Origin: a virus
IMG/VR virus record: IMGVR_UViG_3300036766_000184
Span: 23,864 to 87,863 of that record
Reading direction: 5' to 3' (one strand)
DNA length: 64,000 bases
The position numbers and the translations under genes are program-made. Position 1 is the first letter of the stretch; the number at the start of each line of letters is the position of its first letter. Shown piece by piece: positions 2,993 to 34,006 of the stretch. The notes below the pieces were generated by a model. That model ran no database searches, was not told the DNA's origin, and saw only the letters and a program-made list of their open reading frames with translations.

Positions 2993-3001
2993 AGAATCTT
3001 C

Positions 3002-3030
3002 TTGACTCTCACGATGGATGTTGCTAAGCT
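3002..3030 (+). promoter_or_regulatory. Promoter of the free-standing HNH-like gene
   Basis: TTGACT, 17 bp, TAAGCT. Confidence 0.5.
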
Positions 3031-3074
3031 GCCCTCCATGGCCAGCGCTACTGGCGGCCATGGAGGAGTCAGCG

Positions 3075-3656
3075 ATGGAAGAGGAGAGAACCAAACGATG
3101 CGGTGTTTGCAAACTGGACAAGCCGCTCTCGGCCTTCTACGCCAAGCCAGGCGTGAAGGACGGACGGATGTCGAAGTGCAAGGACTGCCAACGTCAGTAC
3201 GTGCAGGGTCGCTACAACCGCATCCGTCCGGTGTGGCCCGAGGGTCACAAGTACTGCCCGCGATGCAAGCGGGTATTGCTGTTCGCGGAGTTCGACAAGA
3301 ACGCGCGCCGCGGAGATGGCTTGCAGACCTACTGCAAGACGTGCTGGCCGGAGTACCAGAAGTACTGGCGCAAGCGGCCCGAGGCGGGCTTCATGGCGAC
3401 CGAGAAAATCAAGCGGAGCCTGAAGACTCCTGTCGGCGCGCTCAAGGCTCGGGCACGTCAACTCACCGCGCTGGCCATTCAGTTCGGCCACCTCGTGCCT
3501 GCGCCCTGCGAGGCCGACGGGTGCGGAAGCCTGGATGTCCAGGCGCATCACACGCAGTACGAGAAGCCGCTCGACGGGATTCGCTGGTACTGCGAGAAGC
3601 ACCACTTGGACGTGGGCCACGGCGGTCAGTGGACGAATCCGCCGGTGGGCGCCTAA
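3075..3656 (+). CDS. HNH-like endonuclease with two N-terminal Zn-finger repeats
   Basis: KRCGVCK..F..DG...CKDC and KYCPRCK..F..DGL..YCKTC; C-terminal CEADGC...AHHTQYEKPLDGIRWYCEKHH. Confidence 0.75.
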   Translation: MEEERTKRCGVCKLDKPLSAFYAKPGVKDGRMSKCKDCQRQYVQGRYNRIRPVWPEGHKYCPRCKRVLLFAEFDKNARRGDGLQTYCKTCWPEYQKYWRKRPEAGFMATEKIKRSLKTPVGALKARARQLTALAIQFGHLVPAPCEADGCGSLDVQAHHTQYEKPLDGIRWYCEKHHLDVGHGGQWTNPPVGA

Positions 3657-3740
3657 GCCGTGCCGCTCCACGCCCCTCGTGGGCCGCCTAGCAGGAGGGC
3701 CTCGACGCCGCCAAGGCGAAGGCCAGGAGGAAGAGAGACC

Positions 3741-4436
3741 ATGGACACCGTGACAGCCCAGAAGCCCCTGAAGGCCCCGAAGGCTCCGAAGCCGCGCCCC
3801 GGCGATGACTACGACGACGCGCTGGCTGACTCCTCGGATGACGTCGAGCAGCGGGCCGCCGAAGCGCATCAGGCCCAGATGGGTTCGGCCCAGATGGACG
3901 ACGACCTCGATCTGTCCATCGTGGAAGATCGTGATGTCGAGATCGGGATGCCGCTGATCCCGCGCGCCCGCGTGGTCTATGTCGGGTCGCATCCCAAGAA
4001 GAACGAGCCGATCCGGGGCCAGATGGTCACCGAGTCGTGGGAAGCCGAGCCCGCCGTCGAGGCCGACCCGAAACGTGGGATCGCGGCTCGGCCGGCCGTC
4101 ATGGAGTACAGCAAGACGCCCACGACCGAGTCCGGGATCACGAGCTACAACTTCGCCATCCGGGACGAGCGGGGCCGAATCTTGACTCAGCGCCTGATGC
4201 CGCGGGACGCCAACCAGAAGGTCGCGGGCAAGCCGTGGGGGGTCTGTGAGCACCCCGAGCACCTGCGGTACTTCTTGCGCAAGCGGGATCGGGCCGGCGT
4301 GCGCGAGTACGAGGTCCTGATCCCCCAGGCGAAGCGGGCCGCGTTCGACAACTACGTGTCCGACAAGGAACGCGCGATCGGTCGCCACCACGCCCTCGCG
4401 GACTACTCGGCGGGGCTGCGTCAGACCCCTGAGTAA
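3741..4436 (+). CDS. Hypothetical protein in the virion operon
   Basis: Clean ORF, AGGAGG RBS, high GC3. Confidence 0.7.
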   Translation: MDTVTAQKPLKAPKAPKPRPGDDYDDALADSSDDVEQRAAEAHQAQMGSAQMDDDLDLSIVEDRDVEIGMPLIPRARVVYVGSHPKKNEPIRGQMVTESWEAEPAVEADPKRGIAARPAVMEYSKTPTTESGITSYNFAIRDERGRILTQRLMPRDANQKVAGKPWGVCEHPEHLRYFLRKRDRAGVREYEVLIPQAKRAAFDNYVSDKERAIGRHHALADYSAGLRQTPE

Positions 4437-12618: not shown

Positions 12619-15600
12619 ATGGCCGTCACCATCCGCGACATCGACGCGCTCTTCGACGAAGAGCCGAAGAAAGACAGCGCGGCCTCAGCGCCCGCCACAA
12701 CCCCGGCAGCACTCGCACCGCCCATAACGACGGTCGGGGACATTGACAAGCTCTTCGCCGAGTCGCCCGACGATTCAGCATCGACCTTCCCCGCGAGCAC
12801 GCCGGAGATCAGGCAGGCCGAACTCGACCGGAACCTCCGCGACATCAAGGCCGGAAATGTCCCGCCGACCATCCAGGCCCCGATCGCCGCGGTCGATCCT
12901 GCGACGGGTGTCCCGCTCGACATGCCATCCCCGACACCACCCGTGACATCGGGCGAACCCGGCATCCTCACGCGCCTCGGTCGTGCCGCGCGCAACGTCA
13001 TCATGGGCACGCCAGCCGCCGCCCAGCCCGCGACACGTGATGGCTCCGGGGGCGTCATCGAGCCGCCGCCGAGTCAGGCTGAGGTGCGCGCGACCGCGCC
13101 GGGTGGAGGGCCGTTGGTCACACCACCTCCGGCGACACCTGCGGTCACTACGCCGATCGTCTCAGCGTCTACGGTGCCGGCGCCTCCTGCCCAGCGCTCA
13201 TCCACGCAGCCGGTGTTCACACCACCCGCACCCGTGACGCCGGAGAATCCTCTTCCCGAGTGGGCGGTCGAGCGCAATAAGATCACGCCGACCCCATCCA
13301 GCGCTCCCGTCATCAACTCGGTCAGGGACCTCGCGCCTCATGTCGCCGATCTTGTCGCGCCGCCGATCAATGCACGTCCCGCTATCGAGGATGCTGGTCA
13401 GCAACTCGACGCCTTCAGGGCTCGACTTGACCAGGAGCATACGGCCCTTGTGGCGGAGCGGTCTGCGCTGAATGCTGCGCGCGCGAGCCTTGAGTCGCGC
13501 CTCGGGCAATCACGAGCCCCAGGAGCACGAGCGGCCATCGAGGCTGAGGTCGCCAGCTACAACGAGCGCGAGGGGGTATTCAGCCAGCGCAGGGGGGCCT
13601 TCGGAATTGCCGCCGAGAGTTTCAACGCTCGCGCGGATAGGCTCAGGGCGCTGGACAAGGACGAGTCGTCGCGTGGCGGGATCGTTGAGCGTGGGACGCG
13701 CGCCGCCGTTGAAGCGCAGCGCAGCGGCATCAGTCGAGCAGCGCAAGCCGTCACCTCGCTGGGCGAAATCCCCTTGTACGCGGGGCCGGGCTCAACGAGC
13801 GAGCGGGTCAATGTCCCCAATATCGTCTGGCAAGCCTCCCTCAATCTCGCCAACGGGCTGTTGCAGGCCGGCGCAGCACCAGCCATTGGCGTTGGAGCGG
13901 CGGGCCGGGCGGCCCTTGAAAAGGCAGATCCAGAACTCGCGAGCACGACGCTTGTCGGCGACGACGCGACGGCGCGTGGCATCCGACTCGGATTGATGCC
14001 GACAGAAATCCCCGTGGATCGCACCCCCGAGGAACACGCCGCCCTTGGTGCGCCGATCACCGTCGGGGAAGCCGTCGAGATCCTCGGTGCCCTCGGCACG
14101 ATCATGGGTATCGGGCGCATCGCGTCGAGCAACACGCGCTACGTGATTAACTGGGGTCGGCCTGGCCCGAGGTTCGGTCGCATTGAGCCGATGAAGGCCC
14201 TGCCACCAGCGCCACCCGAGGCGCTCTCAGGCGTGGTCGCTCGCCCTGAGCCGGTCGGTCCATCTGGATCAGCCCCCACCATCGACCTGACCGTGACACT
14301 CGGCGACATCTCGTCTGCCCGCGCGGGCAAGGCGAATCTTGCTGAGTCACTGGCGGATGCAGCGGTCAGCCGACTCAAACCGCTCCCCGCGGAATGGGAT
14401 GCCGGTCGCCGTGTCTTCACGCTCACGGAAGACATCCCCGGCCATGCCCGCGGTGATGTCGTCAGCGCAACACAGGCCGCAGCGGAGGGCTATGACCCGT
14501 TGCGCCTTGCCGCGCGGACCAGCGCGACGCCGACCACTCGGCCGGTCGCTACAGCGGCGCGTCCTGAGCCGATCCTCATCGAGTCCGAGCCAGCGGCGGC
14601 TGGGTCGGGGCCGCTTGCGCCGGCCGCAGAGGCAGCGAAGGCTCGGCTCGCGCAACGGGCACCGACGCCACCGTTCGGGCCATCAGAACCACTCGCGTCC
14701 ACGGCCCCCGTCACCACCGAGGACATCGACGCGCTCTTCGTACCGCCCGCCAGAAACGAGCCGGAAACGACCCCCGAGTCGGCCGATCTCAAGCCCGCGC
14801 CATCGTTGACATCGCCGGGAAATCAACGGGGCGCCATGACTCCGCTCACTCCCGAATCGGTGGCCGCCGCGCTGGAGGATGCGAACGGCAACTACATCAC
14901 GGCTGCGGAGGCGCTCGCCGGGAGCGACAACCTCCTGAGCGTCCTGAACGCGGCGAATCAGGCCCGGAAACTCTCGCCCGAGTTCAACGACGCGATGGGC
15001 AACCGGCCCCGCACGGGCTCGATGCTCAAGGTGGAACGGGACCGGCTCGCGCAAGAAGACCGCGGCGGATGGGACCTCAACAACGACAACGACCTGATCG
15101 CCTTCGTGAAGAGTAAGGGGGGTATCCGACCGGACCCCGGCGGGGACCTCTCCGAGAAATGGGAGGCGATCCCGAAGGAACTGCGGAGCAAGACCAAGGG
15201 GCTCACGCCGTCGCAGATGGCGGAAGTCGTCAACGAATCCCTCGGACGCGAGCGCAACACGAATGTCATCAACGACGCGGAGATCCTGCGCCGCTTGTCG
15301 AAGTCGACGGTGCGCGGCGGAGCGCGCGGCCAGCGTGAAGAGGTTGACCGTGCGCAGGCCGAGCAGGAACGTCAGGCCGCCGATGCCCACGCGCGCTTCA
15401 TGGACATGCCGGAAGCCGAACAGATCGCCGCGCTTCGTGATATGACCGGGGCCTCGGAGGCGGATGCGCGAGCGCTTCTCAAGGCCCGACAGGATGCCGC
15501 GAGGCCCGTCGAGTTCCTGTCCGACAAAGACGAACCGACCGGCGAGAAGGGCGCGCTCGACAGGGCGCTCCTCGAAGGCTTCCTGGCAGGACCGGAACGG

Positions 15601-18600
15601 GAGCCGCGCGAGATCATCCGTGAGGTGCTCGATCAGGTCGGCGGCCACGAGGCGGTCGCCAAGGGGATGTTCGGCGGCGATATAGGCGAACTCGACGCCT
15701 TCGTGCGCCGTGTCCATGCGGAGGCGGTGGAGTCGAGCAAGGCGATGGAGCCGAGAGCGCCCTATGGTGGTCGCGGCACCTCCTTGCCCGCGCGGGCAAT
15801 GTTTCGCGGCGTCAAGGCTGGCCGAGATCCTCACGCCATCGAGGGCACCATCGGCGGCACGACATTCTCGCCTGACGAAAAGGTGGCGCGCGCCTACGCG
15901 GGCGAAGACGGTCGTGTTGTGCGCGAGAACCTCGGATTCAAGAATCTGCTCGCGGCCAAGAACTGGATGGAGGCTAAGCGCGCACTCGAACTCCCCGCAT
16001 CGGCGACCATGCCAGAGCTGATCCGGGCGGCGAGTGACGCTGGGCACGACGGTCTCGCGTTTCAGGGCGCGCACGGGCAGGAGTACATCAAGATCCCATC
16101 CAAGGGACCAGAGCCCAAGACCGAGAAGACCCCACTCGGCGATCAGGTCTTGGTCCCCGACACCCCCAAGCGCTCGATCCCCACCGGGAAAGCCAAGGCC
16201 CGCGTCGAGCAGCGCCCCTTGGACTCGACGCCGCTGTTCGGACAGGACAAAGCGGAACGAGATCGGAATTCCGACGACGCGCAGGGGATGCTTCTTGAGG
16301 ACCGCGCGCCGTTCCAGGCACAGGAGAAAGCGGCCAAAGCTCAGGAGAAGGCCGCTGAGGCGCTCACGAAAGCTGCTGGCGCGATCAAGGATGCGGCCGA
16401 CGAAGTGCGGGCGGCCGTTCCCGAGGCCCCGAAGCCCGCGCCGGTCACGTGGGGCGGCTGGCAGGAGCGCTTCAACAAGGAGCCGCTGCCGCTCTGGTCT
16501 CTGACCCAAGACATCCCCGGCCACCCGAAAGGCTCTACGGTCGGCCCCCAGGCGCTCCAGAAGGCGGGATTCGAGGTCCCCGAGCCCCCGGAAGCGGCCC
16601 CGACCGGCGCATCGCCGTACAAGTACTCAAGCGTAGAGATCCGACTGCCGGCCGGGATCGGAGACGCGGTGCGCCGGTTCGCGCAGACGATCCCGCAAGA
16701 TCAGTTGGCGCCGAAGGGTGTCGAGGCGGTGTCTCACGTAACCGTTCGTTATGGCATCCAAAGCTCAGAGCCCGACCGGATTAAGGACGCGCTCAAGGAT
16801 CAGGGCCCCGTCGAGATCACGCTCGGCACGGTCAAGAGCTTCCCGGACACCGGCGACGGAGAAGTCCTCTACGTGGAGGCCCAGGGCCCGGCGGTCGACG
16901 CGCTCCACGAGCACCTGACGGACGCGCTCGTGACCGTCGACACCCAGAAGACGTTCAAACCTCACGTCACCCTCGCCTATTTGAAGAAGGGCGAAGCCAA
17001 GGCCCACGTCGGCGACACCAGTTTCGTCGGCCGGACCTTCACGGCCTCCGAGGTCGTGTTCTCGCCGCGCGATGGAGCGGAGCCTACGGTACTGGCCTTG
17101 CCCGGGCGGGCAGTGGAGCCAGCCACCGAAGCGCCGCGTGTGTCAGACACACCATCCGGTGTGCTAGACACACAGCCGCCGACCGCCGTCAACGAACCAG
17201 TCGCCCCCTACACCACGGAGCCCGCCCCGGCTTTCTTCTCCGCACTCCGTGACGCAGCCGACAAGCGTCTGCCCGCGCGGGCCAGCGCCGAGCAGATCAT
17301 GGCGACCATCCGGGCGACCCCAGGCGTCAAGGCCGACGAGATCACCTGGACCTACCTCCCCGAGTGGTTGGCCGAACAGAAAGGCCCGATCGCCAAGGCG
17401 GACGTGCTGGCGTATCTGGACGACTACGGCGTCAAGGTGCGGGAAAGCCTGCGCGGGCAGGGAGCGGGGAGCGATCCGGGCCAAGAGGCATTCCGTCGAG
17501 CGTTCGAGCCCGCCGCGCCCGGCGAGTACGCGCGCACATTCCGCGACCTGATCGAGCCGCTTGGCTACCACCCGGAGCATGCGTCCTCGGGGCCGGGCTA
17601 TCTCGTCATCCGCGCCGCGCCCATCGTCAATCCGGAAGTGGGCCTGGACGAATTGAACCGACGGATGGATCTGCTCGAAGCCGAGCGCGAGCCTGCCTAT
17701 CGGGCCGCACACCGTCTCGGCATCATCGACACGCGCAGTGAGGCTGAGGACATGGAACTCGCCCGCCTCACACAGACCTTGACGATCATCGACGGACAGG
17801 AACAAGAGATCGACGACCAGATTCAAGAGGTCGTTGACCGGGATCGTCCGCGCTACTTCACCATCCGCGCTGAGGGCCGCGTACTGCTCAACGACGACGA
17901 GGGGGCCGCCGACTTCGATGAGGCTGTCGTGAATGCGTGGCGTGACCAGGAGGATCGCGCAGGACGCAGTACCACACCGAACGCCAATCTCTCGCCCGCC
18001 GAGTACGAAGGCTACAAGGCCGTCAGAGGCGGTGAGAGCTACCGCGAGCTACTGTTCCTCTATGAGAGGCCGCCAACAGAGCTTGACAAAGAGATTCGTG
18101 CGCTCTCGCGGGGCAGGGGGCGACCGGGCTCAGGCCATGACGATGCTTTCTCGATACAACCGGAAGACCAGCCACGCTTGGACGCGCTGCTCAGCCGTCG
18201 TGTCGGGCTACCCCGCCATGTTTTCCGGCCCCCTCACTTCCGCAACGCCGAGGACATGATTGCGCATGTCCGATTCGATGTCCGCACCGACGCCGACGGC
18301 CGGCGCGGACTCCTGATCCAAGAGGTGCAGGACGACCTCGACAACCAGATCCGCAAGCGACAGGACAACTTGAAGTCGATGGAGCGCGCATTGCCGGATG
18401 TCGCAGAAGGAACGCCAGCGCGACCCGGACTAGAAGGAAACATCGCGGACGCGAAGACCGAGATCGCCCGCCTCGAAGCCCTTCTCCCCTTCCGGGGCGG
18501 CAAGTCGAACGAGTTGGTGATGAAGCGCGTCCTGCGTTTTGCTTCGGAACAGGGCTACGACTTCGTGGGGTTGGCGACGGGCGCGCAGCAGGCGGAATTG

Positions 18601-21600
18601 TACAACCTCTCGACGCACGTCAAGCGGATCATGCTCTACGACGCCAGCGGCGGCATCAGCGTGCCCAAAGATGGACCGTTCGTAAGCGGGATGTTCGTGG
18701 CGACCCCGCGAGATCGCGGACAACAGATTGAGCGCCGCATTGACTTGGCGCAAGACCCAGAAGCGCTGAACGATCTCGTCGGCCCTGAGATGGCGGCGCG
18801 ACTCCTGGCGCGTCCGTCTCGCGTGGGCAACTGGGCTGGACTCGGCGCGCGTATCCGTTCGCTGGAAGATCTGGACCTCGAAATGCCGAGTAAGCAAGCG
18901 CAAGGCAAGAAGAAGACCTACGACGAGATCCTCCTCGCCGTCCTGAACAAGCTGGCGAAGCCGTGGGGACAGAAGGTGGAGGATCGGTACCTGAAGGCTG
19001 ATGCGGGATCTCGGACGATGGCGAATGATGACGCTGGTTCCGCAGCGGCGATCGGCGCCGCGCCCATCCACGCTATCGCCATCACCCCCGAGATGCGCGA
19101 GGCCCTCCTGCGTCACGGCTTCCCGCTCTTCGAGGACCGCGCGGCCTACGGGGCACTCCCCGCTGAGGCCAAGGTCGCCGCTGACGCTCTCAACGCGCAG
19201 GACATCCGCAACAACCCCAACTTTACAAGGTGGTTCGGAGCCTCGAAGGTGGTGGACGAGAAGGGCGCCCCGAAGGTCGCCTACCGCGGCGACAACCGCG
19301 CGGATCGCCTCGACCGTCTCCGCAAGGCTCGCGCGTCCAGCGCGCATGGGTTCTTCTTCACCGAAGACCCGGCCATCGCGTCGAGCTACGCCACGGGGAA
19401 GGTCGACCGGAACGCGGTCGACGACGTGATGGAGGGCGAGAACTTCCGCAACTACTTCCGATTCACGCGCCCCGGCGTGCGCGGCACGATCAACCTGCAC
19501 GATCTCTGGTATCACCTGAGTCGAGCCGAGCAAGCGCGCGTCGAGGACGTGGTACGCAAGTCGGACTACACGGAAGAGCAGCCGGACGGCACGGTCGGCC
19601 CGCGCTACTGGGACTTCAGCGGCGAGCGTAGTGTGCGCGATCAGGCTGGATGGGATTACGAGATTCGTGACAACCGAGGCAACGTGCTCGACGCAGCGGC
19701 CTCGACCTACTTGGGCGGCGCGATTCTGCACGGCGATGGTGACGAGGCGCTCTTCCTCGATCTCCTGAAAGAGGCCGGGATCGAGGGCGAGTACGTCGAC
19801 CCGTGGGCGGAAGCCCCCGCCGTCACACCGGTCTATCTTGCGATCCAGACTCCGCTCGATACGGCGGCAATCCCACCGGCCGTGGTCGACCGACTCCGAG
19901 CCGTCGCGCGCCGCTCACGCCGTCAGCCGAAAGAGGGCTACGGCGACCCGTGGAACATGGCGGCCATCACGCCGAAGGTGTGGATCAGCGAGCTTGAAGA
20001 CAACCTGACGAAGGGCACGACGACCGCGTGGACCTCGATCCCGAAAGAGATCGTGCGCGCGCTCCAAGGGCTCGGCTACGACGGGATCAAGGACACGGGC
20101 GGGAAGATGGGCGGCCAGCCCCACGCGGTCTGGATTGCGTTCGAGCCGACGCAGGTCAAGAGCGCCATCGGGAATCGGGGCACGTTCGATCCGTCGAGCC
20201 CGTCACTGGTCCGAGAAGAAGCGACGCCCTACGCCGAGTTGCCCGCCCGGGCAGAGCCAGCTCCCGCGTTCTACTCGACGCTCCTCCAAGCCGCCGAGAA
20301 GCGCCTGATGCCGAAGATGTCCCGCGCTCAGGTCCTCGGGGTACTCGGGTCCACGCCGGGCGTCAAGAAGATCGAGATCCACTGGACCGGCCTTGAGGCG
20401 TGGCTCGCCGGCCAGCCCGAGGTCGGGATCAAGAAGACGGACGTGCTCGACTTCATCCGGGCGAATCAGGTCCGGGTGGCGATCAGGGAGTTGAGCGAGG
20501 CGACCTCGGAGACCGAGCAGCGACGGATCGAAGCAGAGTCCGGCCTCGATCTCTCCGAAGAATACGGAGGCATGGGCAGCTTCGACTCCGCGTGGGACGA
20601 GGTGCGCGCGCTCGACCCAGATCCTGAGTACGTGAAGGAGATGCGCGCCGAAGACCCGGACTGGGAGCCGAGCGACGAGGAGATCGAATACCGCTCGTCT
20701 CATCCGGCCGGGTACGAGGTGACCGGGAATCGTGAGAGCGGTTTCTCGGTCTGGGTCCCTGATGCGTCTAAGGGCGTCGGGCGCAGGGGCGTGCGCGATG
20801 ACGGCGGCGTCCAGTTCGATCGCCTCGACGCCGCACAAGAAGCCGCTGGCTTAGACTACTTCAACTGGCTTGAGAGAGCGGCTGACGATGGGGCCGCTCC
20901 TCGTCACGGCGAACACGTCGAGCCCGGCGGTCTCCCCGGCACCTATCGGGAGCGGCTGTTCGTGTGGCCGCCGGAGACGCTGGAGCCAGCGCCGACATCT
21001 CGAAGCCTGTGGCGCGAGAAAGCAGAGCAGGTCGCAGGCGAGAACGGCATCGAGCAGCCGCACCTGCTCAGCGATGCCGCTCTTCGAGAGCGTGTGGGCG
21101 AGATGGCCGCACAGGAGGACGTGAGCGCTGTTGATCGGCCTCGGCGCGACGACACGCTGTACGAGCCCCCATCTTCCCACTTCGATCAGCCCAACCTGAT
21201 CGCCCACGCGCGCCTGGACGACGGGACGCTTGTCGATGGGACGCCGGTGCTGCGGATGCAGGAAGCGCAATCCGACTGGCGGCACGCCGTCCTTTCCGAA
21301 GGCGAGCGCACCCCCGAGCCGCCGCCCGTCCTGACGGAGTTGCCGGAGGGGTACAAGGTGGAGTCGGCTCCGAGTCAGGTGGTCGAGCAGGGTGCCGGGA
21401 AGTTCCGCTATTCACCCGTCACGAAGGTCCTGTCCCATGTAGGGCCAGAGGGTCAGGAGTGGCGTCGCGACGGTGTCGAGCCGATCAACCTGGGCCTTTT
21501 CATGGACGAGTTCACGGCCGGCAAGCTATTCGACCGCCTCGAAGCCATCGGCGTCCTCAAGAAAACCCTCAGAAAGAGGTCCTGGGTCGTCCGTCAGCCT

Positions 21601-24600
21601 GACGGGGTCGTGATGGTCAGAGCCGAGGCGACGGCGAGTCGCGCCGAAGCGGTCAAGCGCGCCGTGAGCCAACTCAACCGCGACCGCCACAACGCCTGGT
21701 CCCGCGCCGTCCCGCCCTTCCCCTGGTTGAAGAACTGGCTGGAACTGGTCATGAAGGACGGGATCAGCGAGGCGGCCCGGACGGGCAAGCAGTGGTTCGT
21801 CTGGACGACAGGCAAGCAGCAGGCCGAGCGGTGGAGCCAGAAGGTCACCGAGAACATCGCGGCGGTGCGGTATCACAAGACGGGGCACTCGGACGGCCCC
21901 GCCGATTGGGTTCTCGACGGGTGGAGCGCCAAGCGATCACAGAAGCGCGAGGGCGAATGGCGCGACCCCGATGTCGTCCAGCGCGTCACCCCCGATGAGT
22001 TGCCGAACTACGTCGGCAAGGAACTCGCCCAGAAGTTGATCGCGGCGGACGGGGAGGTGCTGACCGGCCAGGATCTGACGTTCGGAGGTTCTGAGTTTCG
22101 CGCCATCTACGACACCATGGCCCTCTCTTTCGCGCGCGCGTTCGCCAAGCCGTTCAAGTCGCGGGTGGAGGATGTGCAGGTCAACACGGCGCCGACTGGC
22201 AACCCGCGCGTGGGCATGACCATGCACGGCATCTCGATCACGCCTGAGATGGTGTCCACCGTCTTGACCCACGGCCTGCCGATCATGGAGCCGCGCGCCC
22301 CGTTTGCCGCCGTCCCTGAACCACGCTATCCTCTCCGCGATGGAGCCGACCGGACGAAGAGCTACGCGCTCTTCCACGAGGCGGCGCGTGAGCAGTTGGA
22401 TCTGTTTGGAGGGAACCGTGGGGAGCCAGGGAAGCAAGCGGAAACTCAGGCTGTCGAACCGGCGATCCCGGCTGCGCAAGGTGACACCGGAAGAGCTGGA
22501 AACGCACGCGCGCCTGTTCGTGCATCCCAGCCCGCCCTACGGGGATTCGACGCCGGAGCCGGAGTCCGCACTCTCGCCCTTGCGCTTGCCCGCGACCTCG
22601 CCAACCTCGGCTACGTCTCCCTCCGCGGCTACCGAGTAAGCTCCGCCGAAGAACTCGGCCCCCTCGCGCAGATCTGGCGCGATCCGCGCTACGAAACCTT
22701 CCGCATCGTCTACGTGGACGACGCGGGCACCATCCTCGCCCATGAGGCCATGACGTCTCGGAGCGCCGGAGCCGCAGAGGCGTGGAAGCCTGACGACGAC
22801 GTGGACGACTGGATCGCCACGCGCCGCGTTCGGATGGCGAAGATGGGCGCGACCGGATACTACCTGCTGCACAACCACCCAACGACGGCCCCGATCCCGT
22901 CACGCGAGGATCGCGCGCTCACGACCAGAATCTCGCGGGCGCTGACTGGGTTCAAAGCACACGTCATCATCGACCACGGGAGCTTCGGCATCCTCCGCCC
23001 TGACGGGACTGAGGTCATGCGTCCCGTGACGGCGCAGCCGGATGCGCGCTACATCCCCGCCGTCCCGCACGACATTCTCGATGTTCAACTGACGAGTCCC
23101 CAGGATGTCGTGAGGCTCGGCAAAGCCATCGAGGTCCGCGACGGTTGGGTCGCGCTGCTCTACCGTGGCGCGGCAGGGCAGATCATTGCGGCTCAAGAAA
23201 TGCCACGGGCGCTGTTCCTTCACCCGACAGAGGCGACCAACTATCTACGCGCCCAAAAGAATAAGTGGGATGCCGACAGCATCTTTGCTTATTCATCCGT
23301 GCGCGGCGACGCTGCCGTGATCGCGGCGGCGCAATCCCTTGTCGACGATGGACGACTTCGCGATGCGTGGGTTGGCGCTCACGGCGCGGAGATTCTCAGC
23401 GACCGAGAGCGAGGCGTGCGCGCTAACGAAGATCTCGCGACCCGTCCTATCGTTCGCTTCGCAGAATCCGGCGCCCCCTACAACGACACGACCGACGAGG
23501 ATCTCCGCGAGCTGGGCCGGGCCTTCCTGACCGATCCACCAGACTACGAATCGTGGGCGGCGCAGATGCGGACACACGTGAGCCCGGCGTACTACGCGCG
23601 GCTGGCGAAGACGTATCAGGATCTCACCGCGTCGGCCTCGGATGTCCAGACGTCGAGCGCGCGCCCGACCGGCGTGCAGAATCCGGCCCAGACCGCCGCG
23701 GGCGATCTCAACGCCGCGCGCGGCATCCCACTGCCCGCCGGGCAAGCCCTCATGGAGCGACTGCACAAGATTCTCGACGTGCCGATCTCCGAGGGGCGCG
23801 TCGGTGGCGGGGCCGGGCGTCTCGGGTTCACGCGGCTCAAGGGCGGGCGTGCCGAGGCCGCTCGGCTCAAGGTCTCCGAGGATCTCTCGACGGCCGCCCA
23901 CGAGGCCGGACACGTCATCTCGGCGATCGTCTGGGGTGCCCGCCCCGGCGCGCGCGATGCCTTCTACATGCGCCACTCGCCTGACCTGATGCAGTTGGCT
24001 GAGGGGCACGTGACACCGAACCAGGAAGAGGGCTGGGCCGAGTTCTGGCGGCTCTACTTGCAGAACGCCGACAGCACGCGCGCGATCTACCCGGACCTGA
24101 CCCGCGACATTGAAGACGCGCTGGCTCGCGAGGATCAGCCGCTCCTATCCGCACTCCAGCAGTGGGGCGACGACTACCGGGCGTGGCGTGGATCTCGGCC
24201 CCGGGACCGGATTCGCAGTCACGTGGTCCGCGAAGTCGGCAAGACCCGTGACCTCCGCGGCACGCTGCGGCGGACCTACACCAACCTGCTCTGGGAAGGG
24301 GCCCCGCTGGACCGCGCGGTCAATACACTCGCGGCTGGGCACCCGCTGGGGCCCGAGCAGAATGCGAGCCTGCTCAAATCGGTCTTGGCCGGCGCCCCGA
24401 AGCTGGCCGAGTACTTCCTCTTCGACAAGAACGGCCACGGCGGGACCCTCGACTTCCACACACGCCAGGTGACCGGGCCGTCGCTGGAAGCCGTGCTCAA
24501 TCCCGTCAAGGCGACCTGGCAGGACTGGTCGGACTACATGATCGCCCGTCGTCTCCGGGAGTTGATGGGTCGCCCAGACGACAACGGCAAGCGCGCGGCC

Positions 24601-27240
24601 GGACTCCTGATGCAGGTGCTCGAAATGAGCGCGGCCGATGTCCACGGCGAGCTGGCCGCGTGGGAGATCGAGCACCCGGAGTACGAGGCGGTCGCCGCGG
24701 CCTTCCAGACCTGGAACAAGAGCCTGCTCAAGTACCTCGAAGACGCCGGCGTCACGTCAGCCGAGAGCCGGGTCGCCATCGAGGAGGCCAACCAGGACTA
24801 CTTCCCGTTCCATCGCTTCTTCGCCGACGACGCTGAAGCTGGCGCGAAGCCGATGGGGGCCGGGGGCGGGGTCGCCAACGTCAGGAGTCCGGTCAAGACC
24901 CTCAAGGGGTCGGGCAGGAAGCTCACCGATCCGCTCGGCTCGGCGGTCAGGAATACCTACGTGATGGTGATGCGGGCCGAGCGCAACGCCGTCCTAGAGG
25001 CACTCGTGTCGCTCGCCGAGTCGACGCCGGGCGGCGGGGCCTTGATCGAGCCGCTCCCGGCCCCACAGACGGGCCAGCAGGTCATGACCGTGGAGGCCAT
25101 CGCCCAGATCCGGCGCGACCTGGAGCGCAACGGCTTGCCGACCGTCGCGCTTGACATGCTCGACCCGACCCAGCTCCGCGAGGTGGTCCGCACCTTCCGA
25201 CCGGATCTGTTCCGGGCGACGCTCCCCGGTGAAATCTGGGTGCTCAGGAAGGGCAAGCCCGCGCACTACCAGATCCACGACCCGGAGCTGTATGGGGCGC
25301 TCGCCAACCTCGACCGGGCCAGCGCGCAGTGGCTCAAGCACCCGCTGGCTCAGGGTCTCCTGGTTGCGCCGGCTGCCCTTCTGCGCGCCGGCGCAACCCT
25401 GTCACCGGAGTTCCTCGGCCGCAACCCCGTGCGCGACACCTTCGCGCGCATCCTGTATACGGCGGCAGCCTCAAAGGTCCCCCTCGTCGGCCCGTACATC
25501 GACGCCGGCAAGGCTCTCGACGGCTTCGTCAGGGGGGTCTTCTCGGCCATCCGACAGGATGCCTGGTATGACGTGTGGAAACGGAGTGGGGCCGCGATCA
25601 CGGCGCTCTCGTCGCTGGATCAGGAGAGTCTCCAGAAGCACCTCGATGACGTGCTGGCCGGCCGGGATGGTGTTCGCCTGCCTGGCTACAAGGGCACTCC
25701 GATCCGTTTCGGGACGGTCATCCAGACGCCGATTCAGTTGCTCAGGCTTGTCAGCGAAACCATGGAAGAGGCCAGCCGGATTGCCGAGACGCGCGACGTG
25801 CTGCGAGGGCTCGGGGTAACTAACCCCGGACAGGCGACCAAGGGGCAACTCCTCGAAGCGGGCGGTGCCGCGCGGGATGTCACCCTCGACTTCAACCGCA
25901 TGGGCGTGTTCTTCAAGGTCACAGGACTCAACCGAGTCGCCGCATTCGTCAACCCCTCGTGGCAGTCGTGGGACAAGCTCGCGCGCGAGGCGGGGCTCGG
26001 ACAGGTGCCAGCCGGCCTCGACCTCGGCGGTGGGGCTGGCGGCGCCGGCGGTGGCGGGCGCACGCCGCCCGTTGGCGGGGCTGGTCTCCCGCAGGGGCCA
26101 CAGGGCCGGCGCATCCTCGAATGGCGCGCCCGGAAGATGCGCGGGTTCTCCTACCGGATACTCATGCTGATGACCCTGCCCTCACTCCTGCTCTGGTGGT
26201 ACAACCACCAGGACGCTCGGTGGGTGGAGATCCCCCAGTGGCAGAAGGACATCTCGTGGATCGTCTTCTCGCGCCGGATCACCAAGGATCAGTGGACGAC
26301 CATGACCGAAGATGAGCGTGTCGAGGCGATGCGGGACGGCATCGTCCGCATCCCGAAGCCCTTCGAGCTGGGCGTCCTGTTCGGCTCGGTCCCGGAACGG
26401 ATCGCCGAGTGGATCGTCGGCCAGAATCCGAACGCCCTCAAGTCGATCGGTCAGAGCCTCGCGACCGCGGCGGGCACGTCCATGATCCCGATGCCGACCG
26501 TGCTCTGGCCGCTCATCAGCATCGCGATGAACTGGAACAACTTCTTCGACCGGCCGGTGGTGTCCAGGGGCCTCCAGGACATCGACCCGGAGTTCCAGAG
26601 CGGCCCCGGCACCAGCCGATCGGCCGAGTCGATGGCGCGCTCGCGCCCGATGGGTTGGCTCTCTCACGGACTCGAAGCCAGCAAGCTCGTTCCGACGTTC
26701 CTGACCGAGGCGATCCGGTCCCCGATCCAACTAGAAAGCCTGATCCAGGGCTACGCGGGGAACCTTGGGCGCATCGGTCTCAACGCGGGAGATCTGGCCC
26801 TTAAGGCCCTCGATGCCCACGGGCCGGCCGAGCCCGAGAAGACGTGGAGCGATGTCCCGGGCATCCGGGGATTCCTGGTCCGCTACCCGTCTGGGAGCGC
26901 CACCTCGATTCAGGACTTCTACACGATCTACGCGGACGCCCAGAAGGCCGTCAAGACCCTGCAATTCATCGCCAAGAAGAAGCCGCGAGAGGACCCGGAA
27001 GCCTACGAGCGCGAGCACGAGTTCGCGCTGCTCGAATACGTCGCCATGCAGGCGACCGCGAAGTCCCTCACGCAGTCCCGTGCCGACTTGCAAGAGATCC
27101 GTGAGGACAAGGCGATGGACGCGCAGACCAAGCGCAAGGAAATGGATCGTGTCACGCTCGGCATGATCGAAGAAGCCAGAGGGGCCGTTGAGGGTCGTCG
27201 CACCGCCGAGGCAGCCTACCGAGCGGCCCGCAAGCCGTAG
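12619..27240 (+). CDS. Giant polyvalent internal virion protein (2x ART-like, 2H phosphoesterase, duplicated unknown domain, JAB/RadC, HExxH peptidase, LPD38-like C-terminus)
   Basis: 4873 aa; MFRG..TFS (~15800); HVTVRYG/HVTLAY (~16735/16963); NFTRWFG..AYRG..GFFFT..GYDGI..FEPTQVKSAIGNRGTFD (~19210-20200); HNHP..PS.ED (~22870); HEAGH (~23900); RIPKPFELG..FG (~26350). Confidence 0.9.
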   Translation: MAVTIRDIDALFDEEPKKDSAASAPATTPAALAPPITTVGDIDKLFAESPDDSASTFPASTPEIRQAELDRNLRDIKAGNVPPTIQAPIAAVDPATGVPLDMPSPTPPVTSGEPGILTRLGRAARNVIMGTPAAAQPATRDGSGGVIEPPPSQAEVRATAPGGGPLVTPPPATPAVTTPIVSASTVPAPPAQRSSTQPVFTPPAPVTPENPLPEWAVERNKITPTPSSAPVINSVRDLAPHVADLVAPPINARPAIEDAGQQLDAFRARLDQEHTALVAERSALNAARASLESRLGQSRAPGARAAIEAEVASYNEREGVFSQRRGAFGIAAESFNARADRLRALDKDESSRGGIVERGTRAAVEAQRSGISRAAQAVTSLGEIPLYAGPGSTSERVNVPNIVWQASLNLANGLLQAGAAPAIGVGAAGRAALEKADPELASTTLVGDDATARGIRLGLMPTEIPVDRTPEEHAALGAPITVGEAVEILGALGTIMGIGRIASSNTRYVINWGRPGPRFGRIEPMKALPPAPPEALSGVVARPEPVGPSGSAPTIDLTVTLGDISSARAGKANLAESLADAAVSRLKPLPAEWDAGRRVFTLTEDIPGHARGDVVSATQAAAEGYDPLRLAARTSATPTTRPVATAARPEPILIESEPAAAGSGPLAPAAEAAKARLAQRAPTPPFGPSEPLASTAPVTTEDIDALFVPPARNEPETTPESADLKPAPSLTSPGNQRGAMTPLTPESVAAALEDANGNYITAAEALAGSDNLLSVLNAANQARKLSPEFNDAMGNRPRTGSMLKVERDRLAQEDRGGWDLNNDNDLIAFVKSKGGIRPDPGGDLSEKWEAIPKELRSKTKGLTPSQMAEVVNESLGRERNTNVINDAEILRRLSKSTVRGGARGQREEVDRAQAEQERQAADAHARFMDMPEAEQIAALRDMTGASEADARALLKARQDAARPVEFLSDKDEPTGEKGALDRALLEGFLAGPEREPREIIREVLDQVGGHEAVAKGMFGGDIGELDAFVRRVHAEAVESSKAMEPRAPYGGRGTSLPARAMFRGVKAGRDPHAIEGTIGGTTFSPDEKVARAYAGEDGRVVRENLGFKNLLAAKNWMEAKRALELPASATMPELIRAASDAGHDGLAFQGAHGQEYIKIPSKGPEPKTEKTPLGDQVLVPDTPKRSIPTGKAKARVEQRPLDSTPLFGQDKAERDRNSDDAQGMLLEDRAPFQAQEKAAKAQEKAAEALTKAAGAIKDAADEVRAAVPEAPKPAPVTWGGWQERFNKEPLPLWSLTQDIPGHPKGSTVGPQALQKAGFEVPEPPEAAPTGASPYKYSSVEIRLPAGIGDAVRRFAQTIPQDQLAPKGVEAVSHVTVRYGIQSSEPDRIKDALKDQGPVEITLGTVKSFPDTGDGEVLYVEAQGPAVDALHEHLTDALVTVDTQKTFKPHVTLAYLKKGEAKAHVGDTSFVGRTFTASEVVFSPRDGAEPTVLALPGRAVEPATEAPRVSDTPSGVLDTQPPTAVNEPVAPYTTEPAPAFFSALRDAADKRLPARASAEQIMATIRATPGVKADEITWTYLPEWLAEQKGPIAKADVLAYLDDYGVKVRESLRGQGAGSDPGQEAFRRAFEPAAPGEYARTFRDLIEPLGYHPEHASSGPGYLVIRAAPIVNPEVGLDELNRRMDLLEAEREPAYRAAHRLGIIDTRSEAEDMELARLTQTLTIIDGQEQEIDDQIQEVVDRDRPRYFTIRAEGRVLLNDDEGAADFDEAVVNAWRDQEDRAGRSTTPNANLSPAEYEGYKAVRGGESYRELLFLYERPPTELDKEIRALSRGRGRPGSGHDDAFSIQPEDQPRLDALLSRRVGLPRHVFRPPHFRNAEDMIAHVRFDVRTDADGRRGLLIQEVQDDLDNQIRKRQDNLKSMERALPDVAEGTPARPGLEGNIADAKTEIARLEALLPFRGGKSNELVMKRVLRFASEQGYDFVGLATGAQQAELYNLSTHVKRIMLYDASGGISVPKDGPFVSGMFVATPRDRGQQIERRIDLAQDPEALNDLVGPEMAARLLARPSRVGNWAGLGARIRSLEDLDLEMPSKQAQGKKKTYDEILLAVLNKLAKPWGQKVEDRYLKADAGSRTMANDDAGSAAAIGAAPIHAIAITPEMREALLRHGFPLFEDRAAYGALPAEAKVAADALNAQDIRNNPNFTRWFGASKVVDEKGAPKVAYRGDNRADRLDRLRKARASSAHGFFFTEDPAIASSYATGKVDRNAVDDVMEGENFRNYFRFTRPGVRGTINLHDLWYHLSRAEQARVEDVVRKSDYTEEQPDGTVGPRYWDFSGERSVRDQAGWDYEIRDNRGNVLDAAASTYLGGAILHGDGDEALFLDLLKEAGIEGEYVDPWAEAPAVTPVYLAIQTPLDTAAIPPAVVDRLRAVARRSRRQPKEGYGDPWNMAAITPKVWISELEDNLTKGTTTAWTSIPKEIVRALQGLGYDGIKDTGGKMGGQPHAVWIAFEPTQVKSAIGNRGTFDPSSPSLVREEATPYAELPARAEPAPAFYSTLLQAAEKRLMPKMSRAQVLGVLGSTPGVKKIEIHWTGLEAWLAGQPEVGIKKTDVLDFIRANQVRVAIRELSEATSETEQRRIEAESGLDLSEEYGGMGSFDSAWDEVRALDPDPEYVKEMRAEDPDWEPSDEEIEYRSSHPAGYEVTGNRESGFSVWVPDASKGVGRRGVRDDGGVQFDRLDAAQEAAGLDYFNWLERAADDGAAPRHGEHVEPGGLPGTYRERLFVWPPETLEPAPTSRSLWREKAEQVAGENGIEQPHLLSDAALRERVGEMAAQEDVSAVDRPRRDDTLYEPPSSHFDQPNLIAHARLDDGTLVDGTPVLRMQEAQSDWRHAVLSEGERTPEPPPVLTELPEGYKVESAPSQVVEQGAGKFRYSPVTKVLSHVGPEGQEWRRDGVEPINLGLFMDEFTAGKLFDRLEAIGVLKKTLRKRSWVVRQPDGVVMVRAEATASRAEAVKRAVSQLNRDRHNAWSRAVPPFPWLKNWLELVMKDGISEAARTGKQWFVWTTGKQQAERWSQKVTENIAAVRYHKTGHSDGPADWVLDGWSAKRSQKREGEWRDPDVVQRVTPDELPNYVGKELAQKLIAADGEVLTGQDLTFGGSEFRAIYDTMALSFARAFAKPFKSRVEDVQVNTAPTGNPRVGMTMHGISITPEMVSTVLTHGLPIMEPRAPFAAVPEPRYPLRDGADRTKSYALFHEAAREQLDLFGGNRGEPGKQAETQAVEPAIPAAQGDTGRAGNARAPVRASQPALRGFDAGAGVRTLALALARDLANLGYVSLRGYRVSSAEELGPLAQIWRDPRYETFRIVYVDDAGTILAHEAMTSRSAGAAEAWKPDDDVDDWIATRRVRMAKMGATGYYLLHNHPTTAPIPSREDRALTTRISRALTGFKAHVIIDHGSFGILRPDGTEVMRPVTAQPDARYIPAVPHDILDVQLTSPQDVVRLGKAIEVRDGWVALLYRGAAGQIIAAQEMPRALFLHPTEATNYLRAQKNKWDADSIFAYSSVRGDAAVIAAAQSLVDDGRLRDAWVGAHGAEILSDRERGVRANEDLATRPIVRFAESGAPYNDTTDEDLRELGRAFLTDPPDYESWAAQMRTHVSPAYYARLAKTYQDLTASASDVQTSSARPTGVQNPAQTAAGDLNAARGIPLPAGQALMERLHKILDVPISEGRVGGGAGRLGFTRLKGGRAEAARLKVSEDLSTAAHEAGHVISAIVWGARPGARDAFYMRHSPDLMQLAEGHVTPNQEEGWAEFWRLYLQNADSTRAIYPDLTRDIEDALAREDQPLLSALQQWGDDYRAWRGSRPRDRIRSHVVREVGKTRDLRGTLRRTYTNLLWEGAPLDRAVNTLAAGHPLGPEQNASLLKSVLAGAPKLAEYFLFDKNGHGGTLDFHTRQVTGPSLEAVLNPVKATWQDWSDYMIARRLRELMGRPDDNGKRAAGLLMQVLEMSAADVHGELAAWEIEHPEYEAVAAAFQTWNKSLLKYLEDAGVTSAESRVAIEEANQDYFPFHRFFADDAEAGAKPMGAGGGVANVRSPVKTLKGSGRKLTDPLGSAVRNTYVMVMRAERNAVLEALVSLAESTPGGGALIEPLPAPQTGQQVMTVEAIAQIRRDLERNGLPTVALDMLDPTQLREVVRTFRPDLFRATLPGEIWVLRKGKPAHYQIHDPELYGALANLDRASAQWLKHPLAQGLLVAPAALLRAGATLSPEFLGRNPVRDTFARILYTAAASKVPLVGPYIDAGKALDGFVRGVFSAIRQDAWYDVWKRSGAAITALSSLDQESLQKHLDDVLAGRDGVRLPGYKGTPIRFGTVIQTPIQLLRLVSETMEEASRIAETRDVLRGLGVTNPGQATKGQLLEAGGAARDVTLDFNRMGVFFKVTGLNRVAAFVNPSWQSWDKLAREAGLGQVPAGLDLGGGAGGAGGGGRTPPVGGAGLPQGPQGRRILEWRARKMRGFSYRILMLMTLPSLLLWWYNHQDARWVEIPQWQKDISWIVFSRRITKDQWTTMTEDERVEAMRDGIVRIPKPFELGVLFGSVPERIAEWIVGQNPNALKSIGQSLATAAGTSMIPMPTVLWPLISIAMNWNNFFDRPVVSRGLQDIDPEFQSGPGTSRSAESMARSRPMGWLSHGLEASKLVPTFLTEAIRSPIQLESLIQGYAGNLGRIGLNAGDLALKALDAHGPAEPEKTWSDVPGIRGFLVRYPSGSATSIQDFYTIYADAQKAVKTLQFIAKKKPREDPEAYEREHEFALLEYVAMQATAKSLTQSRADLQEIREDKAMDAQTKRKEMDRVTLGMIEEARGAVEGRRTAEAAYRAARKP

Positions 27241-33204: not shown

Positions 33205-33518
33205 GCGCGAAGGACTGGCGGATGGTCGCGCCGTGCGAGACGTGCCCGTTCTCAGATTCCGAGGGCGGCACGCGCATGCGCCGGTCGCTGCGACCCGGAC
33301 GCGTGGCGAGCATCAAGCGCGGGCTCCTGCGCGGCGACGCGTTCCATTGCCACAAGACGGTCGGACACGACGACGAGGATGAGGCCGTCATCGGGGCCGG
33401 CGCCCGACTGTGCGCCGGGGCGTTGGCGTGGCAGAACGGACGCGGCGCGTCGTCCAACTATCAGCGCGTCTGCGAATCGCTCGACTACGTCGCGGAGCGG
33501 CGAAAGGCGCGCCCGTGA
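33201..33518 (+). CDS. Cys/His-rich hypothetical phage protein
   Basis: PCETCPF...FHCHKT...LCAGA. Confidence 0.65.
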   Translation: MSAKDWRMVAPCETCPFSDSEGGTRMRRSLRPGRVASIKRGLLRGDAFHCHKTVGHDDEDEAVIGAGARLCAGALAWQNGRGASSNYQRVCESLDYVAERRKARP

Positions 33519-34006
33519 ACGTGACGCCAGCCGAGTACGCCCAATTGCAGGCGCGGGCTCAGTCACCCGTGCGTGAGGGTTGGCGAGACGGCGCGTTGAG
33601 CGTTTTTGTCCCCGGCATCCCCTACAACTTCAAGAGCGGCGGGCAGACGACCCGCGGCGGCTTGATGAAGCATCGTCGGCTCGTGAAGGAATGGCGGGAG
33701 CGGACGGCGGATCGCATCTTCGCCGTCATGTCGGAGAACGACCTCGGCGAGAAACGCGCACCCTTCCTCGCCTGGAAACAGAGCGACCCGAAGCGCGTGA
33801 CGTTCACGGTCTACTCGCGCAACGCCTTCGACAGCGACGGACGCGAAGTCTGCTGTTCGCCGTCGCGCGATGCGTTGAAGGATATGCACCTCGTGACCGA
33901 CGACCGCGACTCCGCGGGCAATGTTTTCATCTACGAACAGATCACGAGCCGGAAGGCCACGTTCGTTCGCGGCATCGCGATCCGCATCGAACTGAGAAAG
34001 GACTGA
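33515..34006 (+). CDS. RusA-like Holliday junction resolvase (divergent)
   Basis: VFVPGIP...FDSDG.......RDALKDMHLVTDD...GIAIRIE. Confidence 0.55.
   Translation: MNVTPAEYAQLQARAQSPVREGWRDGALSVFVPGIPYNFKSGGQTTRGGLMKHRRLVKEWRERTADRIFAVMSENDLGEKRAPFLAWKQSDPKRVTFTVYSRNAFDSDGREVCCSPSRDALKDMHLVTDDRDSAGNVFIYEQITSRKATFVRGIAIRIELRKD

Follow-up and report, generated by a model that had tools for sequence, protein, structure and literature searches.

A Repeated Junction Motif in a Giant Phage Protein

The IMG/VR virus record IMGVR_UViG_3300036766_000184 (genome G000, 87,863 bases, completeness rating 83%) was analyzed over its bases 23864-87863, a stretch of 64,000 nucleotides referred to here as the window. 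It contains a giant open reading frame (ORF; window 12619-27240, + strand) with one uninterrupted translation of 4873 aa. The product, labeled P0001, is read as a polyvalent virion protein of a phage and is probably ejected; the other P and L numbers designate its relatives, and G001 is the phage genome that encodes L165. We found that this protein carries seven copies of a short motif, E-x-x-[AT]-[PA]-[YF], one at each cassette end, and that the motif recurs at homologous junctions in the relatives P0004 and L165. The motif is real and confined to inter-cassette linkers and, judged from the sequences, appears to be under selection. We tentatively interpret it as a processing or recognition site whose reader would be common to this small clade. 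An earlier note on this DNA, made from its letters alone, had already described the seven copies, and all were found where it had placed them, the heptapeptides that it quoted starting one codon before the E. The copies and the domains around them are given below in window positions; block ends are the ends of BLASTP homology blocks with 27 giant homologues that fall within 20 aa of a copy, and pLDDT is the predicted local distance difference test score of AlphaFold2 models.

15748-15765, + strand: motif copy 1, (A-M-)EPRAPY, aa 1044-1049; closes the N-terminal region; no block end nearby; P0002 reads AKEPNVY here
15766-16296: small cassette between copies 1 and 2, aa 1050-1226; no Pfam family (aa 1043-1227 scanned)
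16297-16314, + strand: motif copy 2, (L-L-)EDRAPF, aa 1227-1232; closes the small unnamed cassette of ~180 aa; 1 block end
16732-16998, + strand: 2H phosphoesterase domain (Pfam 2_5_RNA_ligase2), aa 1372-1460; E 1.6e-10
17194-17211, + strand: motif copy 3, (V-N-)EPVAPY, aa 1526-1531; closes the 2H cassette and is followed by module A copy 1; 5 block ends
17221-19131, + strand: module A copy 1, aa ~1535-2171 (~640 aa); starts PAFFSAL, ends ITPEM..HGFPLF; no Pfam family
19132-19149, + strand: motif copy 4, (L-F-)EDRAAY, aa 2172-2177; 10 block ends; pLDDT <50
19213-20199, + strand: ART-PolyVal-containing domain; folded core aa ~2199-2527, best Pfam stretch aa 2399-2523
20215-20232, + strand: motif copy 5, (V-R-)EEATPY, aa 2533-2538; 21 block ends; pLDDT <50
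20251-22287, + strand: module A copy 2, aa ~2545-3223; 28-43% identical in patches to copy 1, of which it is an old paralogue
22288-22305, + strand: motif copy 6, (I-M-)EPRAPF, aa 3224-3229; 7 block ends
22687-22965, + strand: RadC-like JAB domain, aa 3357-3449; HNHP..PSxxD; the cassette is also in P0004 and L165
23464-23481, + strand: motif copy 7, (F-A-)ESGAPY, aa 3616-3621; 1 block end; at the aligned place P0004 has VQEESSY and L165 VQEEREPY
23698-24141, + strand: zincin-like domain, aa ~3694-3841; HEAGH at aa 3761-3765 (nt 23899-23913), EGWAEF at aa 3804-3809
24142-26211, + strand: rest of the conserved C-terminal core; part resembles a PhiM1 ejectosome protein (model residues 198-552 versus 8vb2_A, Z 6.3)
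26212-26862, + strand: LPD38 domain, aa 4532-4748; E 7.5e-30

The pattern E..[AT][PA][YF] matched the 4873-aa protein exactly seven times, the mean in shuffled sequences being 0.67, and none of 2000 shuffles reached seven. Stricter forms were more strongly over-represented: E..AP[YF] was found five times versus 0.15 expected and E[PD]RA[PA][YF] four times versus 0.006, and each of the five AP[YF] tripeptides in P0001 has an E three residues upstream. The residue two before the E is always hydrophobic (A, L, V, L, V, I, and F in copies 1 to 7), and the pattern extended by this position gave seven matches versus 0.34 expected. As the regular expressions were fitted after the fact these P values are inflated, and the independent support is the replication of the motif in P0004 and L165. 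No copy lies in the first 1043 aa, despite the long Pro/Ala-rich stretches there, nor in the last 1257 aa. At the DNA level the codons of the seven copies differ, 12 identical bases being shared only by sites 2 and 4, which indicated that conservation acts at the protein level.

Outside the giant ORF, 448 stop-to-stop frames of at least 100 aa (83,591 residues) contained eight loose matches versus 3.2 expected. The tight form E.RAP[YF] was found there twice versus 0.12 expected, both times in frames with coding-like GC content at third codon positions (GC3):

G000:C1:4723-5214, + strand, upstream of the window: small ORF beginning MSEQRAPYG, with the tight motif at the protein N-terminus; GC3 0.85
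Frame at window 33410-34006, + strand: EKRAPF, the second copy outside the giant ORF

A single-protein scan of viral contigs found no relatives of the MSEQRAPYG ORF. De novo motif searches did not recover the junction motif in its [YF]-degenerate form: with exact residues DID..F ranked first and only EP.AP and EDRA were listed, and with a reduced alphabet the junction motif was unranked, because D and E are merged in it.

The Motif Copies and the Cassette Borders

The seven copies bound six cassettes of 183, 299, 646, 361, 691, and 392 aa, in the order small unnamed cassette, 2H phosphoesterase, module A, ART-PolyVal, second module A, and RadC/JAB. The giant protein has four domains with a Pfam name (2H phosphoesterase, ART-PolyVal, RadC-like JAB, and LPD38), and each named effector domain lies inside one cassette. 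A recurring site was thus present at each cassette border, with one copy per cassette end, as would be the case in a self-processing polyprotein. Comparison with the 27 giant homologues showed that 45 of 147 block ends fell within 20 aa of a site, versus 15.7 for random sites (P=0.012), and that these ends cluster at sites 3-6. The claim of the earlier note that every copy falls at a domain junction was therefore borne out in part: sites 3-6 lie at homology-block borders and the Pfam domains lie between sites, but sites 1, 2, and 7 lack block-end support, their junction status resting on the motif and on the spacing of the Pfam domains. When aa 2160-2560 were modeled with AlphaFold2 (alignment of 20 rows, mean pLDDT 68), copies 4 and 5 were in the low-scoring segments that flank the ART core.

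Alignments showed that the motif immediately follows the final conserved residues of the domain before it (..HGFPLF-EDRAAY, ..HGLPIM-EPRAPF, and ..DPSSPSLVR-EEATPY), and that its spacing to the following domain is variable. This arrangement indicated that each cassette ends in the motif as a C-terminal tail. Two pairs of sites (3 and 5, 4 and 6) flank paralogous modules that are 28-43% identical, and the motif has been kept at all of them.

Recurrence of the Motif in P0004 and L165

Among the 27 giant homologues P0004 alone stood out, with four strict and five extended matches versus 0.49 and 0.34 expected, plus VQEESSY. Its copies (VAEEKAPY, VAEREAPY, VRETRAAY, VAEGEASY, LFEKGTPY, and VQEESSY) are at homologous junctions, where they follow the ART tail, module A, and the RadC cassette. 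L165, an IMG/VR relative of P0004 that is 72% identical to it over aligned pairs, has VAEEEAPY, VAEKPAEY, VAEPKAGY, LFSPESPY, and VQEEREPY. Between these two proteins the inner residues of the motif vary (REAP to KPAE, TRAA to PKAG), whereas the E is kept at four of five comparable junctions and the aromatic residue at five of five. Kept anchors with drifting inner residues are the usual signature of a short functional motif. The phage that encodes L165 (G001; 89,082 bases, rated 100% complete) is a relative of the phage of the window: compared with those of G000, its head protein is 62% identical over 323 aa and its portal 42% over 635 aa. When metagenomes were scanned with P0004, the only matches were the L165 contig, already known, and a distant one.

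L165 lacks the ART and module A of P0004, and at that place reads ..RVAEPKAL-TEGQPLFSPESPY.. (L165 9599-17845 versus P0004). In this bridge a junction tail runs straight into the final six residues of module A, which indicated that the breakpoints of the cassette loss were at or near junctions, as linkers would be expected to give. The proposal that the motifs are crossover points for domain shuffling is borne out only insofar as domain gain and loss break at junctions. As to the mechanism, crossover by DNA homology at the motif was rejected, since the codons of the seven copies are too different.

RadC/JAB, with HNHP..S..D intact, is the sole catalytic cassette common to the three motif-bearing proteins. 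From sequence, it may be taken as a lead, rather than as evidence, for the cutter. Nothing relevant was among the papers listed when the literature was searched for a peptidase role of RadC/JAB in phages.

The HEAGH Zincin-Like Domain

The last motif copy precedes HEAGH (aa 3761) by 145 residues, as the earlier note had it. HEAGH is part of a module of ~750 aa that matched 4619 representative proteins at E≤0.001, and the C-terminal core (window 23686-26862), which comprises the zincin, the PhiM1 ejectosome-like part, and LPD38, is a very common phage module. HExGH was invariant (142 of 142 aligned rows), and the glutamates of EGxAE were nearly as constant (E3804 in 144 of 144, E3808 in 139 of 144). 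An AlphaFold2 model of the core (791 residues, 38 rows) had a mean pLDDT of 76, with values >90 over the first ~180 residues. It placed HEAGH on helix 67-83, and both HExxH and the downstream Glu of zincins were found; metal binding by this domain is predicted on that basis. The nearest solved folds in a VIA wide search were the lethal factor catalytic domain (1yqy_A, Z 9.1, rmsd 6.0, 140 aligned), PPEP-2 (6fpc_A, Z 7.1, rmsd 3.8, 122 aligned), and PPEP-3 (9g0j_A, Z 7.0), followed by further zincins with lower Z. As best Z values of 7-8 are common with this search tool, the assignment of the fold is moderate. Foldseek with the whole 791-residue model found nothing in the PDB at E≤0.001. A Pfam scan of aa 3622-4000 gave no peptidase family above threshold, the only one at E≤1 being Peptidase_M50B (E 0.15, 12.2 bits versus a cut-off of 26), and a PDB sequence search with the zincin region returned nothing relevant. 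Taken together, the HEAGH region is with moderate confidence a conserved zincin-like domain of predicted lethal factor/PPEP-like fold, in keeping with its earlier designation as a peptidase.

The motif and this domain were, however, found not to travel together. P0004 and L165 carry five to six copies without the HExxH module: P0004 has no HExxH anywhere, neither P0004 nor P0002 matches the module, and the sole HExxH string in the stop-to-stop frame of L165 lies upstream of the start Met. A profile search with the module at E≤1 gave no match in G001 (89 kb), while the same search matched the genome of the window itself. Nor did 149 proteins with the HEAGH module show an enrichment of the motif (37 versus 39.9 expected; tight form, 5 versus 10.1), and 138 module proteins showed no shared motif upstream of the zincin. 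Proteins of ~800-1100 aa that consist of the module, without N-terminal effectors, exist; effector release, which the earlier note had invoked, cannot therefore be the conserved role of the zincin. The C-terminal cores of P0001, P0002, and P0004 were unrelated by BLASTP, and since these three lineages have no common core, shared ancestry of a hidden protease there is unlikely. A complex prediction of zincin residues 3690-4064 with linker aa 3208-3245 scored 0.00 in two runs without controls and counts neither way. A zincin acting in trans and common to both phages was also considered and rejected: the PF18894 PhageMetallopep ORF and the weak SprT-like ORF found in G001 belong to families that had no match in G000 at E≤1.

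According to abstracts, PPEPs cut Pro|Pro, and an optimized lethal factor substrate is cut between Pro at P1 and Tyr at P1', P1' being mainly hydrophobic (PMC6259840). Since both enzymes tolerate Pro at P1, a cut at A-P|Y/F would be in character for a zincin of this kind.

Domain-End Tails in Other Relatives

In most relatives the ART-PolyVal domain closes with ..nP.I-x-[FY]-[SQ], in a fuller form ..NRGTFDPxnPdI-x-[FY]-[SQ], whereas the end of module A is ..G-x-P-[LM]-F, after which S or Q usually comes next. In alignments the E of the motif stands at this S/Q of the generic tails. The pattern [DN][ILMV].[FY][SQ] was ~2.3-fold enriched in three sets of relatives (35 versus 14.6, 18 versus 7.8, and 71 versus 30.9 expected), and had no match in P0001. 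Relatives P0011, P0010, P0027, P0008, and L059-L062 have repeated tails of their own, such as FSVSGKP (D[IL]RFSVSG.P), TFAISP, IRYQV, DIRLRRKEI, and DITFSL. Repeated, lineage-specific domain-end tails may thus be, on these sequence patterns, a general trait of polyvalent proteins; we found no description of them in the literature, the supplements of PMC5512222 aside. If the pattern holds it would be a general building rule, and would help to delimit unnamed cassettes such as module A.

A bolder extension, which we regard as quite improbable, is that the junction tails form a processing code in which each lineage marks every cassette end with its own short tail. Most lineages would use hydrophobic-x-[FY]-[SQ] and the P0001 clade hydrophobic-x-E-x3-[YF], and the tails would be read by a protease that either accompanies the injected chain or is encountered by it; in the present case this would be the lethal factor/PPEP-like zincin, cutting at A-P|Y/F. 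Were this so, one injected chain of 4873 aa would yield ~8 separate proteins in the host, and the ..A-P-[Y/F] or [Y/F].. termini of the effectors could themselves act as a signal.

Interpretation of the Motif

Five explanations were ranked, in the order processing or recognition site, inherited linker signature, docking, self-cleavage by the HEAGH zincin, and cutting by a prohead protease. The first of these, a selected inter-cassette processing or recognition site with a reader common to the clade, is a plausible but tentative reading. Under it, the seven copies would be one short linear motif, hydrophobic-x-E-x(2-3)-small-[P/A]-[Y/F], that forms a flexible C-terminal tail on each cassette of a virion-packaged polyvalent protein and whose anchors (the E, the aromatic residue, and the hydrophobic residue two before the E) are kept by selection in a small phage clade. 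After packaging or ejection the chain would be cut into the N-terminal part, six cassettes, and the membrane/ejectosome core. The cutter would more likely be something clade-wide than the HEAGH zincin, such as a host protease or an unrecognized phage activity, for example RadC/JAB. Processing is favored by the placement of one copy per cassette, by the lack of any copy in the long, disordered N-terminal region, and by the case made in print that the units of such proteins have to be separated (PMC5512222).

Several observations weigh against this reading. P0002, the closest relative by sequence, with a module A 54% identical to that of P0001, has only degenerate forms (AKEPNVY, LFQPEGDRY, and DQAAPL) or none at the same junctions. 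Besides P0004 and L165, five sets with ~360 relatives in total were tested, and it is in these that the enrichment predicted for homologues failed to appear, although it was found at the homologous junctions of P0004 and L165. Among the giant homologues, 26 of 27 had at most two matches, except P0024 with four loose ones (versus 0.52 expected), yet only one extended match. The motif was not enriched in 24 shorter homologues (8 versus 6.7 expected), nor in the 149 module-bearing proteins mentioned above; it was also called not enriched in 80 viral loci with an ART-PolyVal relative (32 versus 22.7 expected). In 80 viral loci with a module-A relative the counts were 25 versus 21.9 expected, and none of the 44 module-A ends listed was followed by the motif. 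The motif is, by these sequence comparisons, lineage-specific, belonging to a small clade (P0001, P0004, and L165) and no general property of polyvalent proteins. Moreover, four of the seven copies may stem from one duplication of a [tail-motif-module A-motif] unit, which would leave fewer than seven independent events, and the low pLDDT of copies 4 and 5 may reflect the thin alignment rather than true disorder. Finally, non-proteolytic docking fits the same data, and it is from the motif, its placement, and its pattern of conservation that we infer cleavage itself, its position, and its agent.

It is possible, though rather unlikely, that the motif has no specific function and is a linker signature passed on within one lineage as cassettes were duplicated internally and shuffled, and kept only as a spacer or cap at domain ends. 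The paralogy of sites 3/5 and 4/6 fits this, the duplicated unit including an ART-tail-like GVLDTQPPTAV that matches GTFDPSSPSLV, and so do the position of the E where most relatives carry S or Q (PLF|[SQ] or nP.I.[FY][SQ]), the enriched or repeated tails of other relatives, the decay of the motif in P0002, and its restriction to three proteins. Yet the anchors have outlasted the divergence of inner positions and flanks in two comparisons, P0004 with L165 and P0001 with P0004 (domains ~29% identical); the motif follows five unrelated domain types, beyond the duplicated ones; and neutral linkers of such age would not keep the E and the aromatic residue in 17 of ~18 copies. Docking is an unlikely alternative, in which the tail, without proteolysis, would bind a phage structural protein, laying the chain in the procapsid or feeding it into the channel, or a host factor after ejection. 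Kept anchors, variable inner residues, and a disordered setting are typical of binding motifs, and the two motif-bearing phages share the head module (head protein and portal) and not the C-terminal core or any recognized protease. The two tight matches outside the giant ORF, one of them at the N-terminus of MSEQRAPYG, are also what a binding motif could give, but that ORF has no relatives found, P0002 has largely lost the motif, the binding partner is hypothetical, and docking does not require one copy per cassette end and none in the disordered N-terminal region.

Self-cleavage by the embedded zincin, as the earlier note had suggested, would release each cassette, probably by a cut between Pro/Ala and Tyr/Phe. 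The invariant HExGH and EGxAE of a confidently modeled domain, nearest folds that accept Pro at P1, and the location of all seven copies upstream of the zincin in the same chain speak for it. It is nevertheless possible but doubtful, given that P0004 and L165 keep the motif without a zincin and G001 has no module match, that module-bearing proteins are neither enriched in the motif nor preceded by a shared one, that module-only proteins exist, that BLASTP shows no relation among the C-terminal cores of P0001, P0002, and P0004, and that the Z values are in a commonly seen range with no Pfam peptidase family above threshold. Very improbable is cutting after the Glu inside the capsid by a prohead maturation protease, as at the gp21 sites of phage T4. 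The T4 gp21 cleavage consensus is L/I-x-E|, and all seven copies read hydrophobic-x-E, those of the P0004 clade being mostly V-[AQR]-E. Against it, the prohead protease families Peptidase_S78, S77, ClpP, and S49 had no match at E≤1 in the 87.9-kb record (83% complete), the portal is P22-like, the proteins common to both phages include no recognized protease, and a site ending at E would not need a conserved aromatic residue five positions downstream.

Polyvalent virion proteins are thought to deliver anti-defense enzymes with the phage DNA, and whether and where they are cut has so far only been proposed. A processing or recognition site of the kind favored here, a short, mutable motif bracketing every cassette, would be a direct handle on processing, packaging, or docking. 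The finding is confined to three proteins and the function is read from sequence, but the handle is concrete and testable, and the comparative result warns against taking an embedded zincin as the processing enzyme.

Genome Context and Other Features

From its sequence, the source is an uncultured podophage with a P22-like portal. The giant ORF lies downstream of two morphogenesis genes:

Genome 16311-18572, upstream of the window in the record: P22-like portal gene
Window 1949-2992, upstream of the giant ORF: major head protein gene, itself preceded by a gene for a 397-aa protein

Several unrelated effector domains in one polypeptide, as identified by Pfam, and the setting in a virus record beside phage morphogenesis genes are both features of polyvalent proteins. 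The giant protein is probably packaged in the virion and probably ejected into the host, because its architecture and position match those of the virion-associated LPD38 proteins of Bcep22-like phages and phi24B. Megablast of the giant gene against 50,697 phage records gave no match, and tblastn of aa 1000-3700 against the same records gave weak partial matches only, over ≤25% of the query. Between the portal and head genes (G000:C1:19928-24094) there are ORFs carrying a YkuD L,D-transpeptidase domain, a weak match to SNF2-like helicases, and a DNA methylase, which is an unusual placement.

The small cassette (aa 1050-1226) shows, by eye, an R / S-x-S-like / E pattern (MFRGV, TTFSPD, and QEYI); it could be a minimal ADP-ribosyltransferase, a candidate chosen by eye only. 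Module A, of ~650 aa, is recognizable by the signatures PAFFSAL.. at its start, HF..PN.LAH.R, QSDW, WTTGEQQAERY, and ITPEM..G.PLF at its end. Relatives of it are encoded in at least 494 viral-contig stretches; a single-protein scan of viral contigs with module A found nothing.

A second repeat in the giant protein, D-I-D-x-L-F, had four exact-pattern matches versus 0.022 expected, three of them in the N-terminal region:

Window 12637-12654: D-I-D-x-L-F, aa 7
Window 12739-12756: D-I-D-x-L-F, aa 41
Window 14722-14739: D-I-D-x-L-F, aa 702
Window 26578-26595: D-I-D-x-L-F, aa 4654

The N-termini of P0004 and L165 contain two copies of a similar LDE[IV]ADEVF. This repeat may be a packaging or portal-binding signal.

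Comparison With Known Systems

The closest known counterparts of P0001 are the "DarB-like" proteins Bcep22 gp75 and JC1 gp69 (4515 aa) and phi24B gp47 (2811 aa), which are likewise giant multi-enzyme proteins of a podophage morphogenesis module with a C-terminal LPD38. JC1 gp69 (PMC9144972) and phi24B gp47 (bioRxiv 10.64898/2026.04.10.717836) have been detected in virions by mass spectrometry. The C-terminal core of P0001 had 52 matches at E≤0.001 among BFVD predicted structures, many of them phage "large polyvalent protein associated domain" proteins. Its cassettes (2H, two module A, ART-PolyVal, and RadC/JAB) differ from the Bcep22, JC1, and phi24B sets, and the available portions of the reports on JC1 gp69 and phi24B gp47 describe no repeated junction motif.

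Iyer et al. (2017) argued that polyvalent proteins must be processed into individual units and proposed autoproteolytic release by zincin-like MPTase domains (PMC5512222). P0001 resembles their scheme in having a zincin-like domain in the same chain as several effectors, but unlike in their proposal the motif and the zincin do not travel together in its relatives. Their main text names no cleavage motif, and "linker", "interdomain", and "boundar" occur in it 0 times; we found no defined processing site in polyvalent virion proteins elsewhere in the literature either, the supplements of that paper aside. The protein class and the idea of processing were thus already known, and what is new, as far as the literature was searched, is a defined and replicated junction motif and its independence from the zincin. 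RadC is listed in PMC5512222 as confined to proteins of conjugative elements, whereas P0001 has it in an LPD38 phage-type protein.

The M34 zincins (anthrax lethal factor and PPEP-2/3) and aa ~3694-3841 of P0001 both have HExxH and a downstream Glu helix, at 13-15% identity and an rmsd of 3.8-6.0 Å. The zincin of P0001 is fused to an ejectosome-like and LPD38 core, whereas lethal factor and the PPEPs are a secreted toxin or enzyme. MARTX toxins release their effectors in eukaryotic target cells through an internal cysteine protease that cuts at inter-domain linkers, after Leu. The likeness to P0001 lies in one delivered polypeptide with several enzymatic effectors and flexible linkers that carry a simple recurring site; protease class, site, and target differ, and in P0001 cleavage is a matter of inference. 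Finally, the generic tails of the relatives and the motif occupy the same place, after the last conserved residues of a domain, where P0001, in place of the common tail, adds x-x-[AT]-[PA]-[YF], as do only P0004 and L165.

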